Part shown: positions 1,919-6,129 of the stretch, in pieces
Position numbering within the stretch: the stretch's first letter is position 1
How the letters are laid out: each line of letters starts with the position of its first letter
Virus record (IMG/VR): IMGVR_UViG_2778261202_000005
From: a virus
Taxonomy: Duplodnaviria > Heunggongvirae > Uroviricota > Caudoviricetes
Reading direction: 5' to 3' (one strand)
Length of the DNA: 6,129 bases
The notes under the pieces: model-generated
What the model saw: only the letters and a program-made list of their open reading frames with translations
Told to the model about the DNA's origin: nothing
Database searches by the model: none
Translations under genes and position numbers: made by a program

Positions 1919-1973
1919 CAGCGAAATTAACTAGTGAAATAGTTTTGTAGCAAAAGAAATGAGGTTATCAAAA

Positions 1974-2219
1974 ATGCTTCAAATGCTGACACTTGAGGAA
2001 TGGGCTGCGGAAAAATTTAGGAGTAATCCTCCAAGTGTGTCCACATTGCGCCGTTATGCTAAGCAGAATTTATTTTGTCCACCGGCAATGAAACAAGGTC
2101 GACTATGGCGAGTGCGTGAGGACGCAGAGTTAGTTGGGGAATTAGTTACCCCTGTCATCAAGAAAAGTGATTCTATTATTCTACAAAGGATTTTAAGTAA
2201 TGGCAGCCAGACCACGTAA
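1974..2219 (+). CDS. xis: Excisionase (lambda Xis-like)
   Basis: The segment MLTLEEW...TLRRYAKQNLFCPPAMKQGRLWRVRE aligns by eye with lambda Xis (MYLTLQEW...TVRRWVRECRIFPPPVKDGREYLF). It overlaps the int start by 20 bp, as in lambda. The start is ambiguous: in-frame ATGs at 1959, 1974 (GAGG 9 nt upstream) and 1983 (best homology alignment). Confidence 0.8.
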   Translation: MLQMLTLEEWAAEKFRSNPPSVSTLRRYAKQNLFCPPAMKQGRLWRVREDAELVGELVTPVIKKSDSIILQRILSNGSQTT

Positions 2220-3327
2220 AAATAATGTTTCAGTCCCGAACTTGTATCCGCTCTATAGCAGAAAAGTAAATAAAGTCTATTGGCGATATAAGCATCCAGT
2301 GACCGGGAAGTTTCATTCTTTGGGCACAAACGAAGCTGAAGCCATTGCCATTGCCACTGAGGCCAATACACGCCTGGCTGAGCAAAGAACCCGGCAGATT
2401 CTGGCCATCAGTGACAGGATAGCAACCAGCAAAGGGAAAGCAATCACAACGTCAACCTGGTTAGATCGCTACCAAGCGATCCAGGATGACCGACTGAAAA
2501 GTGGTGATATAAGACTCAACACTTATAAGCAGAAAGCCAAACCAGTATCCTTACTTAGGGAACGAGTAGGAATGAAGTTGATCTCAGCCGTTGATGTCAG
2601 AGATATAGCACAATTGCTTGACGAGTATATCGCTGCCGGGCAGCCGAGAATGGCGCAAGTCGTAAGGTCTGTATTGATCGATGTATTTAAGGAAGCACAG
2701 CATTATGGCGAAGTTCCGCCAGGGTATAACCCTGCTCTTGCGACGAAGCAACCCAGACGGAAAATCACCCGTCAACGCCTCAGCCTCGAAGAATGGAAAA
2801 AAATCTTCGATATCGCAGATGCCAGTCATCGTTACATGGGAAATGCCATGCTCCTAGCATTGGTCACTGGACAGCGTTTGGGGGACATATCTAAAATGAA
2901 ATTCAGCGATATTTGGGATGACCATCTACATGTCGAACAGGAAAAGACTGGAAGCAAAATCGCAATTCCTCTTTCTCTTCGCCTCAATACGATTAACTGG
3001 AGTTTACGCGATATAATAGCCCGCTGCCGTGACTATGCAGTCAGTCCATACCTAGTGCATTTTTTCCGTTCAACTTCACAAGCAGAACGTGGGGCACAGG
3101 TTAAATCCAATACATTGACGATGAACTTTAGCAAAGCGCGAGACTTGGCCGGAATTGATTGGGGTGATGGAACTCCAGCAACTTTCCATGAACAAAGATC
3201 TTTATCTGAGCGCCTTTATAGGGAACAAGGGATTGATACGCAAAAACTACTCGGACATAAATCTCCTAATCAGACAGCTAGATATCATGATGATCGTGGA
3301 AAAGATTGGGTAACTCTAGCAATTTGA
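2200..3327 (+). CDS. int: Site-specific tyrosine recombinase, lambda Int family (375 aa)
   Basis: Clear similarity to lambda Int along the whole length: N-terminal arm-binding region (PNLY), WLDRY, HVEQEKTGSKIAIP versus lambda YVEQSKTGVKIAIP, and the C-terminal catalytic region PATFHEQRSLSERLYREQ...LLGHKS...ARYHDDRGKDW with the tyrosine in RYHDDRG. Confidence 0.95.
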   Translation: MAARPRKNNVSVPNLYPLYSRKVNKVYWRYKHPVTGKFHSLGTNEAEAIAIATEANTRLAEQRTRQILAISDRIATSKGKAITTSTWLDRYQAIQDDRLKSGDIRLNTYKQKAKPVSLLRERVGMKLISAVDVRDIAQLLDEYIAAGQPRMAQVVRSVLIDVFKEAQHYGEVPPGYNPALATKQPRRKITRQRLSLEEWKKIFDIADASHRYMGNAMLLALVTGQRLGDISKMKFSDIWDDHLHVEQEKTGSKIAIPLSLRLNTINWSLRDIIARCRDYAVSPYLVHFFRSTSQAERGAQVKSNTLTMNFSKARDLAGIDWGDGTPATFHEQRSLSERLYREQGIDTQKLLGHKSPNQTARYHDDRGKDWVTLAI

Positions 3328-3369
3328 TTTTTATATTTTTATTAAAAATTAAAAAATTCAGACGCATCA

Positions 3370-3382
3370 TATCAAAAATTTA
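3370..3382 (+). promoter_or_regulatory. IHF-binding-site-like motif
   Basis: TATCAAAAATTTA fits the IHF consensus WATCAANNNNTTR. Such matches also occur by chance in AT-rich DNA. Confidence 0.3.
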
Positions 3383-3411
3383 TTAGTAAAATAGATAACT
3401 AATATTTTTCT

Positions 3412-3428
3412 TGGGGGGAGGAGCCCCC
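3412..3428. terminator. GC hairpin (GGGGGG-AGGAG-CCCCCC) between the convergent int and membrane-protein genes
   Basis: A 6-bp all-GC stem with a 5-nt loop inside otherwise very AT-rich DNA. It lies between the 3' ends of int (+) and the 4TM gene (-). No clean T-tract follows on either strand, so it may be a structural or processing element rather than a canonical terminator. Confidence 0.3.
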
Positions 3429-3461
3429 CGCACATTATATTGAAGATTAATAACTGATATA

Positions 3462-4427
3462 TCATTTCTTAAATTTAAGAATTTCTTTTAAGGCTTCTAC
3501 TATATTTTTATCCCCATCCATGCTAATTTTCTCCTTCTCAAGAGAAACCGTAGTCTGCCCTTTTTCAAGAACAAAATTACGTTCTGTAGCCATGAGATTT
3601 TTAATAACCTCACCCATTAAGTCTTCGTTTCTAATGCCCTTAAGAAACTTTATCGCCAAAACTTTGGAATCGATATTGGTAAGCTCATTTTGAAAATACT
3701 TGACCTCATCAAAACCATTTTTGTACAACTTCAAGAAGAAATAAGCAAATAGTTCAACGACAATTACAAATGATAATTTGGGGGCCATGTGAAGTATATA
3801 TTCAAGCTTATCATTTGTGTTAATAGCATTTGTAACTGAATATCCAAGGTAAAGTATCCCACAAAAAGCAATAAATGCACCTAAAACCAGATTAACCCCA
3901 CCACGTCTATTTAATCTATTTATTTCATTTTCTAAACGATATACAATATCATTATAGTGTTTACTAATTTCTATTTGATTTCTAAACGAATTTATATCAT
4001 TTTTCAAACTTAAATCTGCAGCCAAGAGAGTATTGCCTACAATCTTTTTTTTAGCATTATCGATCAACTCTTGCCTTTCTTTTGATGTGAGTAAAACACC
4101 ATTTAAATCTTTCGAATCATTTGTAACTAGTTGATTAAACTCTTGCTTTAAGGAGTCTAATTCTGACTTTAACTCTTCATATGAGTTAACATTCTTGTTT
4201 TTACTTTCACCTATTCCTTTATTAACATAATTTAATAAAAATGCTGCCATAAAAGTTAAAATCAGAGTTGCAATAAAGAAACTATTTTCATCTTGAAGTA
4301 TTTTAGCAACAGTGGAAAAATAACTTACGAGAAGAGGCTGAGCATTATAAAGCCCCATTCCTAACAAAACTGCAATTGCCGTACCTAAAACGAACCTTAC
4401 TTCTTGTCTTTTTAGTAACCTATTCAT
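3462..4427 (-). CDS. Four-helix membrane protein with a central coiled-coil-like cytoplasmic segment (321 aa); candidate membrane effector
   Basis: Complete ORF (ATG 4425-4427, stop 3462-3464), very AT-rich. Predicted hydrophobic helices at about residues 12-37, 50-68, 178-198 and 218-235. A positively charged N-terminus (KRQEVR) suggests N-in topology. Residues 70-175 are charged and heptad-like; a C-terminal soluble domain of about 85 aa follows. No enzymatic motif is recognisable by eye. Confidence 0.85.
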   Translation of the reverse strand: MNRLLKRQEVRFVLGTAIAVLLGMGLYNAQPLLVSYFSTVAKILQDENSFFIATLILTFMAAFLLNYVNKGIGESKNKNVNSYEELKSELDSLKQEFNQLVTNDSKDLNGVLLTSKERQELIDNAKKKIVGNTLLAADLSLKNDINSFRNQIEISKHYNDIVYRLENEINRLNRRGGVNLVLGAFIAFCGILYLGYSVTNAINTNDKLEYILHMAPKLSFVIVVELFAYFFLKLYKNGFDEVKYFQNELTNIDSKVLAIKFLKGIRNEDLMGEVIKNLMATERNFVLEKGQTTVSLEKEKISMDGDKNIVEALKEILKFKK

Positions 4428-4544
4428 TATGACACCATATGTTATTATTTAACGTTTTATTAAATTCAAAATACTGCCCGAGATTTTAATACTCATAACA
4501 AAATAAGAATTAATATACAAAATTTTTCATACTACAAGCAAGGC

Positions 4545-4576
4545 TTTGATAAATTGTTTTGATAACGATTTGATAA
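4545..4576. promoter_or_regulatory. Array of three TTTGATAA direct repeats upstream of the membrane-protein gene
   Basis: TTTGATAA occurs at 4545-4552, 4558-4565 and 4569-4576 (spacing 13 and 11 bp), with a fourth copy at 4623-4630. The array sits 118-150 bp upstream of the minus-strand start at 4427. The first copy (TTGATAAATT) also resembles the H-NS high-affinity motif TCGATAAATT. Confidence 0.3.
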
Positions 4577-4595
4577 CCGTTAGAAATCTAATAAT

Positions 4596-4626
4596 AAAAA
4601 CGGGAGCCATCAGACTTCCGTTTTTG
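4596..4626. terminator. Bidirectional intrinsic-terminator-like hairpin
   Basis: AAAAACGGGAG-(8-nt loop)-CTTCCGTTTTT: an A-tract, a stem of about 11 bp with one wobble or mismatch, then a T-tract. On the minus strand the stem is followed by TTTTTATTATT. It lies about 365 nt downstream of the NTase stop and 170 nt upstream of the membrane-protein start. Confidence 0.45.
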
Positions 4627-4930
4627 ATAACCCGGAGCCTAGATTTGGCTACCCCAGCAGGAAGATGCAACGTCCACGATTGTCACAAATCAGGCTGGCC
4701 CGAGGCAGAATGGCGACTGTGAGGGAGAAACGAAAGTTCACACTCGTTCTCACTGCTGATGGGGGGTTCACTAACAATCTCAAGCACTAATTAATGGACG
4801 AAACTCTACACAAAGCCCCATTTTGTAGGAAAACTGGTAACGGATTAGTAATACTACCCGGCCAGAACATGACCGACCGGGTAAAAAAATATCCTGACGC
4901 TACTAAGCCTTTAAGATTTGACTAACCTAG
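4596..4930 (-). ncRNA. Candidate structured non-coding RNA or long 3' UTR element (hypothetical)
   Basis: A GC-rich island (about 50% GC by eye, against about 25-30% in the flanks) with no ORF of 60 aa or more. On the minus strand it is bracketed by promoter-like -10 boxes upstream and the terminator-like hairpin downstream. It contains a further hairpin (ACCCGG...CCGGGT at 4856-4882). Boundaries are approximate and expression is unproven. Confidence 0.25.
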
Positions 4931-4937
4931 TGCTTAC

Positions 4938-4977
4938 ATTATAGAGAACTGCTTATGCCTTCTAAATTATAGAGTAA
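4938..4977 (-). promoter_or_regulatory. Tandem sigma70-like promoter elements just downstream of the NTase stop
   Basis: Two perfect TATAAT hexamers on the minus strand (plus-strand coordinates 4966-4971 and 4938-4943), each in a CTCTATAAT context. The second has a TTTAGA -35-like hexamer 17 bp upstream (4/6 match to TTGACA). Confidence 0.3.
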
Positions 4978-4989
4978 AAATACTCACCA

Positions 4990-6129
4990 CTAAAATACAA
5001 CTTGCTTCCTTAGTAAATCACCTCTAGCATTTGAGTAATATTCAGTCGAATTGCCAGTAACTTCCCGGAGTACTTCTGTTACAAGGTTATTTAGTATTCC
5101 CGTAAGTTTAAGAAACTCTCCATATGAATTAGGTTTCTCAAATATCTTTCTGGTACCGTTCGGCACATCGAGCTGCATTGCAGCATCATGATCCTGGGCT
5201 AAGTGATTTAGCCAGCGGTGAGTCTCAACAAGTACAGCAAGTTCATAGTATGTACTATGACGGAGATTATTAGCATCTGCATGGTACATTAGTGAAGCAA
5301 TATCATAGCTGCTTAGATCAATACTCGAACCTTCGTCTCCACTGTCTGCTTTCAGGGTTTTGAGCATGCGAATTGATTTTCTTAATCCACCATTGCATTG
5401 ATCGCATTTGTCTTTGATACGTTGCATGTGGAGGAACGGTTCATTGTAGATACGCTCTCGTTTGTTTTTATCAATTATGGTAACTCCACGATGTTCTTCT
5501 TTTTTTGTGAGTTGGTACTCTTTCGTATCCCACCATATGCCTGGCACTACATCAACTTCTCTTTGAAGACTCCCCCCCGTTATTCTCAAGGACTTGGCGT
5601 TATTATCGTCAACCTGAGCAGCAGGAAATGTCATTTTTAGAGCATCTCGAGCTGCACGCCTAAGTTCAATGATGACGTCTCGGCCATCTTTCTCAGCTGC
5701 ACTATAGCTGCCAACTCCACCGCTATCATACATAAGCATCTGAGTATCAATAATTAAAAGATCTACATCACTGAAACCTTTGATATGGATATCTAGGGGA
5801 ACAGAACCTTGTACCCGAAAATCTAGGTTTAGGTCTAATTTCTTAGTCAGCTGATTTTCAATACGATACGCGGTTTCGAATGAGATCTCTGTATAGCGGG
5901 GGTCAACTGGTTGCATCGCACCAATGACATACCGGATAGCTGAATCGTCTCTTCCTCTAGACTCCCAACTTTCATTAAGCTCAAGAGCATCTTCAAGCAA
6001 TGCATATTTTTCAAGGCCATCATATCTTTGATTACTCATTGATTCTGTGGCTACTCGCAACTGATCATATGTCCCTTTACGACGTGACTTCATGCGTTCA
6101 ATACGCGAACTATATGATGAATTAGACAT
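4990..6129 (-). CDS. Pol-beta superfamily nucleotidyltransferase, CD-NTase/SMODS-like (379 aa)
   Basis: Motif QGSVPLDIHIKGFSDVDLLI (G108-S109, 11 residues, then D121-V-D123) and a third acidic residue in EVDVVPG (D193) match the GS...DxD...D active-site pattern of cGAS/DncV/OAS-like enzymes. An alpha-helical C-terminal region of about 180 aa follows. The ATG is at the window edge (6127-6129), so an upstream extension or upstream partner genes cannot be excluded. Confidence 0.85.
   Translation of the reverse strand: MSNSSYSSRIERMKSRRKGTYDQLRVATESMSNQRYDGLEKYALLEDALELNESWESRGRDDSAIRYVIGAMQPVDPRYTEISFETAYRIENQLTKKLDLNLDFRVQGSVPLDIHIKGFSDVDLLIIDTQMLMYDSGGVGSYSAAEKDGRDVIIELRRAARDALKMTFPAAQVDDNNAKSLRITGGSLQREVDVVPGIWWDTKEYQLTKKEEHRGVTIIDKNKRERIYNEPFLHMQRIKDKCDQCNGGLRKSIRMLKTLKADSGDEGSSIDLSSYDIASLMYHADANNLRHSTYYELAVLVETHRWLNHLAQDHDAAMQLDVPNGTRKIFEKPNSYGEFLKLTGILNNLVTEVLREVTGNSTEYYSNARGDLLRKQVVF

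Follow-up and report, generated by a model that had tools for sequence, protein, structure and literature searches.

A CBASS operon cut by a predicted prophage boundary and an orphan inner-membrane protein gene: two probably independent cargo modules of an e14-like prophage

Two putative cargo modules beside a prophage integrase

The stretch of DNA analyzed here (the window; 6,129 nucleotides of IMG/VR virus record IMGVR_UViG_2778261202_000005) carries on its minus strand two open reading frames (ORFs) for proteins of 379 residues (4990-6129) and 321 residues (3462-4427) that are separated by a gap of 562 bp (4428-4989). A preliminary description of this DNA had interpreted the first as a cGAS/DncV-like nucleotidyltransferase (CD-NTase) that generates a signal and the second as its membrane effector. 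We instead consider it highly probable that the two ORFs belong to independent cargo modules, one being the operon of an antiphage signaling system based on cyclic oligonucleotides (CBASS) and the other a stand-alone gene for the 321-residue protein, which lie side by side in the slot that adjoins the integrase of an e14-like prophage at icd. Features that had been read directly from the window, i.e., the ORFs, the GS-x11-DVD and EVDVVPG motifs of the nucleotidyltransferase (NTase), the four hydrophobic helices of its neighbor, and the 562-bp spacer, are all present as described. Both genes are also low-GC cargo next to a prophage integrase as had been noted, with a GC content that differs between them (0.41 for the NTase gene and 0.305 for the membrane protein gene) and with excisionase and integrase genes of an e14-like prophage as their neighbors. 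The genes at the center of our argument are the following, with coordinates of the window unless another locus is named:

4990-6129, minus strand: cdnE, complete predicted clade-E CD-NTase of 379 residues, second gene of a type I CBASS operon
L001 11795-12421, beyond the window end: cap15, 208 residues, first gene of this operon, upstream of cdnE
3462-4427, minus strand: gene of the 321-residue inner-membrane protein (match to phrog_5157, E=3e-75), with two predicted transmembrane (TM) segments, a cytoplasmic helical region, two further TM segments, and a conserved cytoplasmic tail

Three complete Escherichia coli chromosomes match the 3' 2.8 kb of the window at 99.9% identity and place it in an e14-like prophage inserted at icd, where the genes are arranged in the order icd, 208-residue cap15, NTase gene, spacer, 321-residue protein gene, intE, and xisE. 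The NTase and Cap15 genes have GC contents of 0.41-0.43, compared to 0.455 for the integrase gene and 0.50 for icd.

The window edge splits a Cap15-CdnE operon

Several profile and structure comparisons identify the 379-residue protein as a clade-E CD-NTase and thereby bear out its provisional assignment to the cGAS/DncV-like enzymes. The PADLOC CBASS cyclase model PDLC00772 matches it over its full length (residues 3-376; E=6e-137), its best relatives in the PDB are CdnE structures (6wt9 with E=6e-31, followed by 6wt8 and 7x4c), and residues GS108-109, D121 and D123 of the DVD motif (121-123), and D193 of the EVDVVPG motif (191-197) fall on the catalytic residues when the protein is aligned with the CdnE structures 6wt9 and 6wt8. 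Its closest characterized counterpart, CdnE of Yersinia aleksiciae (P0122), shares 80% identity over 100% of its length, that is, all 379 residues. We note that the scores for NCBIfam models CBASS_cyclase_a and CBASS_cyclase_b fall below their cut-offs and that our local Pfam copy gave no match to the NTase, while the precomputed annotation does list PF26305 (CD_NTase_C). EcCdnE01 from a type I CBASS screen had also been considered as a match but was ruled out, being the enzyme of a CapV/DisA-like operon.

Both ends of the window are exact start codons, with position 6129 falling on the ATG of the NTase gene, and three IMG/VR contigs of identical sequence (L117-L119) start precisely at this ATG. 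Because the window stops at this start codon, the upstream gene of the operon, cap15, was hidden from view. The predicted prophage boundary splits the cap15-cdnE operon and removes the true effector from the window. In the longer E. coli loci, cap15 and the NTase gene overlap by 8 bp (CATGTCTAA), and a 208-residue gene overlapping the NTase start is found in all three complete E. coli genomes as well as in 8/8 E. coli contig contexts. Its product is annotated in RefSeq as "Cap15 family cyclic dinucleotide receptor", contains domains PF23471 and PF18153, and matches both the PADLOC model for CBASS effectors with two TM segments (E=1e-80) and the crystallized receptor domain of Y. aleksiciae Cap15 (7n34/7n35; E=5e-77). 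In every E. coli context examined, cap15 and cdnE are the only genes between icd and the spacer, and none of these contexts contains the Cap2/Cap3 genes of type II or the HORMA/TRIP13 genes of type III systems.

The same pair of genes with the same 8-bp overlap is present in Yersinia, where it adjoins a P2-like integrase, and on the chromosome of Serratia marcescens, in both cases with no gene for a 321-residue-like protein downstream. At the nucleotide level, the cassettes of E. coli and Yersinia share 79.9% identity over 1.8 kb, and this similarity ends 12 bp before the NTase stop codon (window position 5002). Judging from these genes and their order, cap15-cdnE is a two-gene type I CBASS of the already characterized CdnE-Cap15 type and a new E. 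coli member of it, and the predicted membrane effector of the NTase is Cap15, not the 321-residue protein. The earlier proposal of a type I CBASS with a membrane effector as prophage cargo has thus proven correct for the system as such but not for the protein that had been cast as its effector.

The beta-barrel domain of Cap15 senses uracil-containing cyclic dinucleotides, upon which the protein oligomerizes and disrupts the inner membrane (PMC10419184). By analogy with the Yersinia orthologue, whose Cap15 senses such signals, the product of the CdnE described here would be a uracil-containing cyclic dinucleotide that is made upon infection and bound by the beta-barrel domain of the Cap15 protein with its two TM segments. 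If the mechanism can be carried over by orthology, Cap15 would then oligomerize and disrupt the inner membrane so that the infection is aborted. As a CBASS the system is ordinary and adds nothing new. RefSeq already names Cap15, and PADLOC models match both the cyclase and the effector.

The spacer as a predicted junction of modules

The 562-bp spacer between the two ORFs had been regarded as atypical for compact CBASS operons and as a hint to a divergent or undescribed variant. This interpretation does not hold up. By its composition and homologies, the spacer is a junction of two independently acquired modules rather than a trait of a divergent operon. Similarity to the Yersinia cassette ends at position 5002, and homology to the Enterobacter locus, in which the 321-residue protein gene lies between icd and the integrase gene, begins at position 4622. 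This Enterobacter homology spans window positions 3228-4622, breaks off there, and is not found again until the icd end, with E. coli carrying a block of ca. 2.43 kb that the Enterobacter locus is without. At the same position 4622 the GC content steps from 0.44 (4622-4989) to 0.27 (4428-4621). We distinguish the following features in and around the junction:

4622-4989, no strand: distal spacer, 367-368 bp of orphan DNA with a GC content of 0.44, 3' of the CBASS block
4591-4620, minus strand: predicted relic of an icd-type intrinsic terminator (CGGAAGTC-TGAT-GGCTCCCG then TTTTTATTAT; one stem mismatch)
4623-4631, 4569-4577, 4558-4566, and 4545-4553, minus strand: cluster of GTTATCAAA repeats, second and diverged copy of the icd-side cluster
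4428-4621, minus strand: native upstream (promoter) region of the 321-residue protein gene, GC content of 0.27

The upstream region of the 321-residue protein gene shares 75% identity over 194 bp with the intergenic region between icd and the homologous gene in Enterobacter roggenkampii, and it contains a block (CTTGTAGTATGAAAAATTTTGTATATTAAT) that is conserved across orthologues. Within it, the relic terminator aligns with the intact terminator that follows the icd stop codon in Enterobacter, Kosakonia, and E. coli K-12, and it probably ends the CBASS transcript; a pattern scan for terminators called nothing in the spacer, including this relic. The relic patch as a whole shares 79-82% identity with DNA of L001 and K-12 that lies 40-105 bp downstream of icd.

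A triple cluster of the GTTATCAAA repeat, spaced in an 11-13-bp phase, is also found beside icd (L001 12729-12761), and single copies lie near xis (window 1964-1972, plus strand) and near the far end of the prophage (L001 1007-1015 and 1937-1945), adding to 19 matches in L001 compared to 7.7 expected. These repeats are probably arm-type binding sites of IntE in the attachment (att) arm, which would hence be duplicated. The CBASS block is flanked by two diverged copies (79%) of icd-downstream sequence comprising terminator and GTTATCAAA repeats, of which the copy in the spacer resembles the Enterobacter/Kosakonia type and the icd-side copy with its flank resembles K-12 e14. A CBASS block between duplicated arms would fit a tandem integration of two icd-targeting elements or recombination between them, and the arrangement suggests that cassettes in this slot were stacked through duplication of the att arm.

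The distal 368 bp of the spacer have no match in plasmids, phages, or E. coli genomes beyond the three carriers, and they show no significant folding (z = -0.9 and -0.7). At ca. 4854-4884, with the stop codon of the NTase gene ca. 105 bp upstream, they contain a GC-rich hairpin of 12 bp (TACCCGGTCGG / CTGGCCGGGTA). This hairpin was rejected as a canonical terminator in either direction, its run of seven T residues preceding it on the gene-sense strand. We also observed a sub-threshold match to the Rfam family STnc150, a Salmonella Hfq-binding small RNA, at 4477-4632 (40.7 bits compared to a gathering score of 60; E=1e-6), which lies on the plus strand opposite to the 321-residue protein gene, at the site of the relic icd-downstream patch. 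The prophage small RNA svsR/co293 (PMC12803456) was ruled out as relevant to this locus because svsR is located at cI.

Distribution of the 321-residue protein family

Among 1.84 billion cluster representatives, a profile search with the 321-residue protein retrieved 2,821 family representatives at 50% identity, of which 1,504 match with E<=1e-30. The best-scoring 150 of these 2,821 are mostly 320-370 residues long and include no fusions. Homologues that inform about the history of the locus are listed with their identity to the 321-residue protein and their genomic context:

E. roggenkampii, 80% identity: icd, the gene, then intE and xis, with no NTase and no Cap15
Kosakonia, 66% identity: icd, the gene, then intE and xis, with no NTase and no Cap15
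Enterobacter sichuanensis, 83% identity: adjoins a TIR protein of the CAP12/Pycsar type
Metagenomic orthologue, 86% identity: follows an icd fragment, with an AbiTii gene nearby
Proteus hauseri, 47% identity: at a prophage end, adjoining an icd fragment
E. coli paralogue (more than 150 contigs), 45% identity: alone, adjoining a different integrase
Vibrio vulnificus, 35% identity: among the small co-oriented cassettes of an integron-like array

Orthologues with 66-86% identity occur without any NTase. The gene would be a self-sufficient module that, in related prophages, ancestrally came first behind the attachment arm at icd. Across 72 IMG/VR loci of the family, the NTase is present only in the 3 contigs that are identical to E. 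coli; the gene lies within 2.5 kb of the viral-contig end in 32 of these loci, compared to 16.8 expected, and an integrase is encoded within 3 kb in at least 18 of them. In loci from 80 species, a tblastn search covering 10 kb around the gene gave no relative of the CdnE or Cap15 described here (0/80), though this test is insensitive to other CD-NTase clades. No neighbor is conserved either, with the most frequent family present in no more than 6 of the 80 loci. Many of these neighbors are housekeeping genes, and others in diverse species include PADLOC candidate systems, a type II methyltransferase, TIR proteins, nSTAND and KAP NTPases, and integrases. The V. vulnificus homologue (L093-L095 7001-8041) is part of a long array of short co-oriented ORFs including ParE/Phd toxin-antitoxin genes that is typical of a chromosomal integron.

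In a Gemmatimonadota metagenome-assembled genome (L079 9353-12618), a 380-residue family member is followed by a complete and unrelated type I CBASS composed of a cyclase (PDLC00802; E=1e-126) and its own effector with four TM segments (4TM; PDLC00724; E=6e-6). This cyclase was missed by tblastn and found by PADLOC only; likewise, the hidden Markov model of the CdnE family is too narrow for other CD-NTase clades among the neighbors, for which PADLOC was needed. This locus, the one among the species loci with an adjoining cyclase, constitutes a second, independent instance of a family member adjoining a CBASS with a membrane effector.

In many draft assemblies of E. coli, the 321-residue protein gene is cut at the ends of contigs of ca. 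104 kb, giving rise to "partial" proteins of 62-320 residues of which some are misnamed DUF3810. The assemblies seem to break repeatedly in or beside this AT-rich gene.

Sequence and predicted structure of the 321-residue protein

Hydrophobic segments of the 321-residue protein lie at residues ca. 9-28 (weaker), 47-69, 175-202, and 210-236, and its charge distribution suggests that both termini are cytoplasmic. The AlphaFold2 (AF2) model of the protein is mediocre (pLDDT 68, pTM 0.38) but places between the two helix pairs an all-helical stretch of ca. 100 residues, where a coiled-coil insert had been described. As a whole, this model of moderate quality is all-helical and has no beta-barrel, SAVED, or cNMP-like domain. 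In an alignment of 81 sequences, the N-terminal half is variable with a mean column identity of 0.2, compared to 0.53 for residues 161-300. The conserved core comprises residues 164-297, and near-invariant positions are R164, N179, G183, P216, and E225, which is embedded in the membrane. Conserved stretches are FAYFFLKLYK, KYFQNE.TN directly after TM4, and TERN ca. 35 residues further on.

The profile searches that the preliminary description had proposed place the NTase among CBASS cyclases and assign neither the 321-residue protein nor 26 diverse homologues to any Pfam, PADLOC, or NCBIfam family; the 321-residue protein itself has no meaningful match in Pfam, none in PADLOC at E<=1, and none above noise in NCBIfam. 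What these searches returned for the 321-residue protein was noise from HALZ, Tetraspanin, and DUF2207_C. The predicted association with SLATT proteins was not borne out, as neither the query nor any of these 26 homologues matches the SLATT, S_4TM, or Cap15 models of Pfam. A search of the family profile against a 2026 copy of the PDB found no solved structure at E<0.05 and coiled-coil noise only, fold searches gave generic helical-bundle matches only, and tblastn against INPHARED phages yielded no match to the protein. Literature searches yielded no hit for WP_001080914, WP_000071977, or phrog_5157.

From its context and conservation, the 321-residue protein would most likely be an oligomeric inner-membrane defense or exclusion protein. 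Its core, made up of the conserved TM3-TM4 hairpin with membrane-embedded Glu225 together with the QNE and TERN motifs next to the membrane, would be gated and either conduct ions or perturb the membrane, while specificity would come from the variable N-terminal half. More broadly, we tentatively suggest that the family could be a widespread, undescribed group of single-gene inner-membrane proteins of anti-phage defense or superinfection exclusion that are mobilized on prophage ends, integron cassettes, and small islands.

Alternatively, the 321-residue protein might be a prophage membrane protein with a role outside of defense, such as an ion or stress channel, a lysogenic-conversion factor, or a component of lysis or immunity that happens to reside in a cargo hotspot. 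It matches no known defense model, many neighbors in the 80 species loci are housekeeping genes, and a weak and non-significant fold resemblance to TolQ, ExbB, PomA, and MotA could suggest an energy-transducing or channel role. We nevertheless find this explanation rather unlikely because the family is accessory and patchily distributed, with members located at the ends of prophages, within an integron-like array, or next to TIR, AbiTii, CBASS, and PADLOC candidate genes, and because no MotB/ExbD-like partner is encoded among its neighbors. In addition, e14 of K-12 holds the defense gene lit in the very same slot.

Weighing a functional link between the two modules

A number of points weigh against the independence of the CBASS operon and the 321-residue protein gene. 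Foremost, the exact 321-residue protein was in E. coli always observed with the CBASS pair, and a lineage-specific functional link between them might exist in a way that is compatible with the comparative data. We attribute this constant co-occurrence to the sampling of a single prophage lineage and consider it outweighed by the separation of the two in other genera. The family member beside a CBASS in L079 could hint at more than chance, though that system brings its own effector. The relic terminator in the spacer is predicted only, contains a stem mismatch, and was missed by the pattern scan, and tblastn over the 80 loci would miss CD-NTases of other clades as it did for L079. The function of the 321-residue protein is deduced from context and conservation, with a mediocre model and generic fold matches, and the defense genes among its neighbors are individual cases.

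A rival explanation is that the NTase and the 321-residue protein form a pair of signal generator and effector as originally proposed or, updated for the discovery of cap15, a three-gene CBASS with both Cap15 and the 321-residue protein as effectors. The two genes are indeed co-oriented and adjacent, travel together in all E. coli carriers of the exact protein, and have a parallel in the Gemmatimonadota genome where another family member adjoins a CBASS. We still regard such a pairing as very improbable. The 321-residue protein matches no model of CBASS effectors, SLATT proteins, or nucleotide sensors; its close orthologues exist without an NTase and no partner is conserved across the 80 species; orthologous Cap15-CdnE cassettes are complete without it; and the CBASS of L079 has a 4TM effector of its own. 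Within the spacer, the relic terminator, the conserved upstream region that belongs to the 321-residue protein gene itself, and the sharp break of GC content and homology at 4622 likewise separate the two. The idea of the 321-residue protein as effector of the NTase is not supported.

Finally, the analogy to Hailong that the preliminary description had drawn, with an NTase that would constitutively make an oligonucleotide keeping a membrane channel closed, can practically be dismissed: its sole support is the superficial architecture of an NTase beside a membrane protein, whereas the NTase has a cyclic-dinucleotide synthase as its orthologue (80% identity) and is translationally coupled to Cap15, no solved structure is retrieved with the profile of the 321-residue family from the 2026 PDB copy (where the presence of HalA was not confirmed), and this family occurs without any NTase.

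We therefore retain two independent modules as the by far best explanation of the locus. A cooperation of the 321-residue protein with the neighboring membrane-acting CBASS is less likely.

The icd-intE slot and the remainder of the window

Besides the two cargo ORFs, the window encodes YfdP-like, YfdQ/DUF2303, and HD-hydrolase proteins, followed by an excisionase and a lambda-type integrase as assigned by Pfam:

1959-2219, plus strand: xisE (RefSeq name), Pfam Exc, of the e14-like prophage
2200-3327, plus strand: intE (RefSeq name), Pfam Arm-DNA-bind_1 and Phage_integrase, convergent with the 321-residue protein gene

The same slot between icd and intE is filled in e14 of K-12 (L012 890-3611) by ymfD, ymfE, and lit, the gene of an abortive-infection protease, and it behaves like a hotspot of defense cargo in e14-type prophages. 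In relatives, the 321-residue protein gene has a gene for a TIR protein (L113) or for AbiTii (L115) nearby.

Positions 1-1918 of the window are occupied by genes of the yfdP/yfdQ/yfdR type, whose products are PF27127-like, DUF2303, and an HD hydrolase that is weakly YfdR-like. In another E. coli prophage with another integrase (L003-L007), these three genes also come before the paralogue that is 45% identical to the membrane protein gene. In strain JB2 (L002 6287-6984; window position ca. 1254-1318), an IS1B element is inserted between the yfdQ-like and yfdR-like genes of the prophage represented by the window.

Significance

The locus offers a lesson on window edges, in that a CBASS operon cut at its second gene made an unrelated membrane protein gene downstream look like a partner. 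It also documents how defense cargo gathers in the icd-integrase slot, with Lit in K-12, a CBASS and the 321-residue protein gene here, and TIR or AbiTii genes in relatives. The real lead is the orphan family of the 321-residue protein, which is large, of uniform length, unannotated, and autonomous and can therefore be tested cheaply as a single gene. We view it as a moderately interesting candidate for a stand-alone defense or exclusion gene. If this is true, ca. 2,800 clusters at 50% identity from many bacterial phyla would represent a defense family that has neither a Pfam nor a PADLOC model, and the conserved TM hairpin with its buried glutamate and the QNE and TERN motifs would be its killing or blocking core.

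Comparison with known systems

The closest known relative of the CBASS operon is that of Y. aleksiciae (7N34/7N35), with which it shares the gene order of cap15 followed by cdnE, their overlap, and carriage next to an integrase. It differs in its E. coli host and in residing on an e14-like prophage at icd, whereas the Yersinia operon is carried by a P2-like element. CBASS of type I whose effectors are multi-TM proteins (4TM effectors of PADLOC, SLATT, and S-4TM) have the architecture that had been envisaged for the window, and a real example with a cyclase followed by a 4TM effector is found in L079. However, the 321-residue protein matches no such effector model even at E<=1 and shows no linkage to CD-NTases across taxa. 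In the Hailong system, the NTase HalB is paired with the DNA-gated channel HalA (PMC13434031). As in Hailong, an NTase gene adjoins the gene of a putatively oligomeric helical membrane protein, but the NTase of the window is a CdnE cyclase and not of the HalB type, and the membrane protein gene is autonomous.

With the MotA/TolQ/ExbB proteins, the 321-residue protein would share four TM segments, both ends inside, TM2 and TM3 separated by a large helical insert in the cytoplasm, and a conserved acidic residue in a TM helix, and one database entry labels a homologue as "MotA/TolQ/ExbB proton channel domain-containing". Membership in this family is not supported, given that the 321-residue protein has no match to Pfam MotA_ExbB, no specific fold match, and no partner of the MotB/ExbD/TolR type. 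Its topology can also be likened to that of RexB, a prophage-encoded inner-membrane protein of abortive infection or exclusion. At the level of the prophage, e14 of K-12 has the same chromosomal position and the same integrase, and its icd-side flank is 77% identical over 283 bp. The two prophages differ in their cargo, which is ymfD/ymfE/lit in K-12 and the CBASS operon with the 321-residue protein gene here, and in the duplication of att-arm sequence in the prophage described here.

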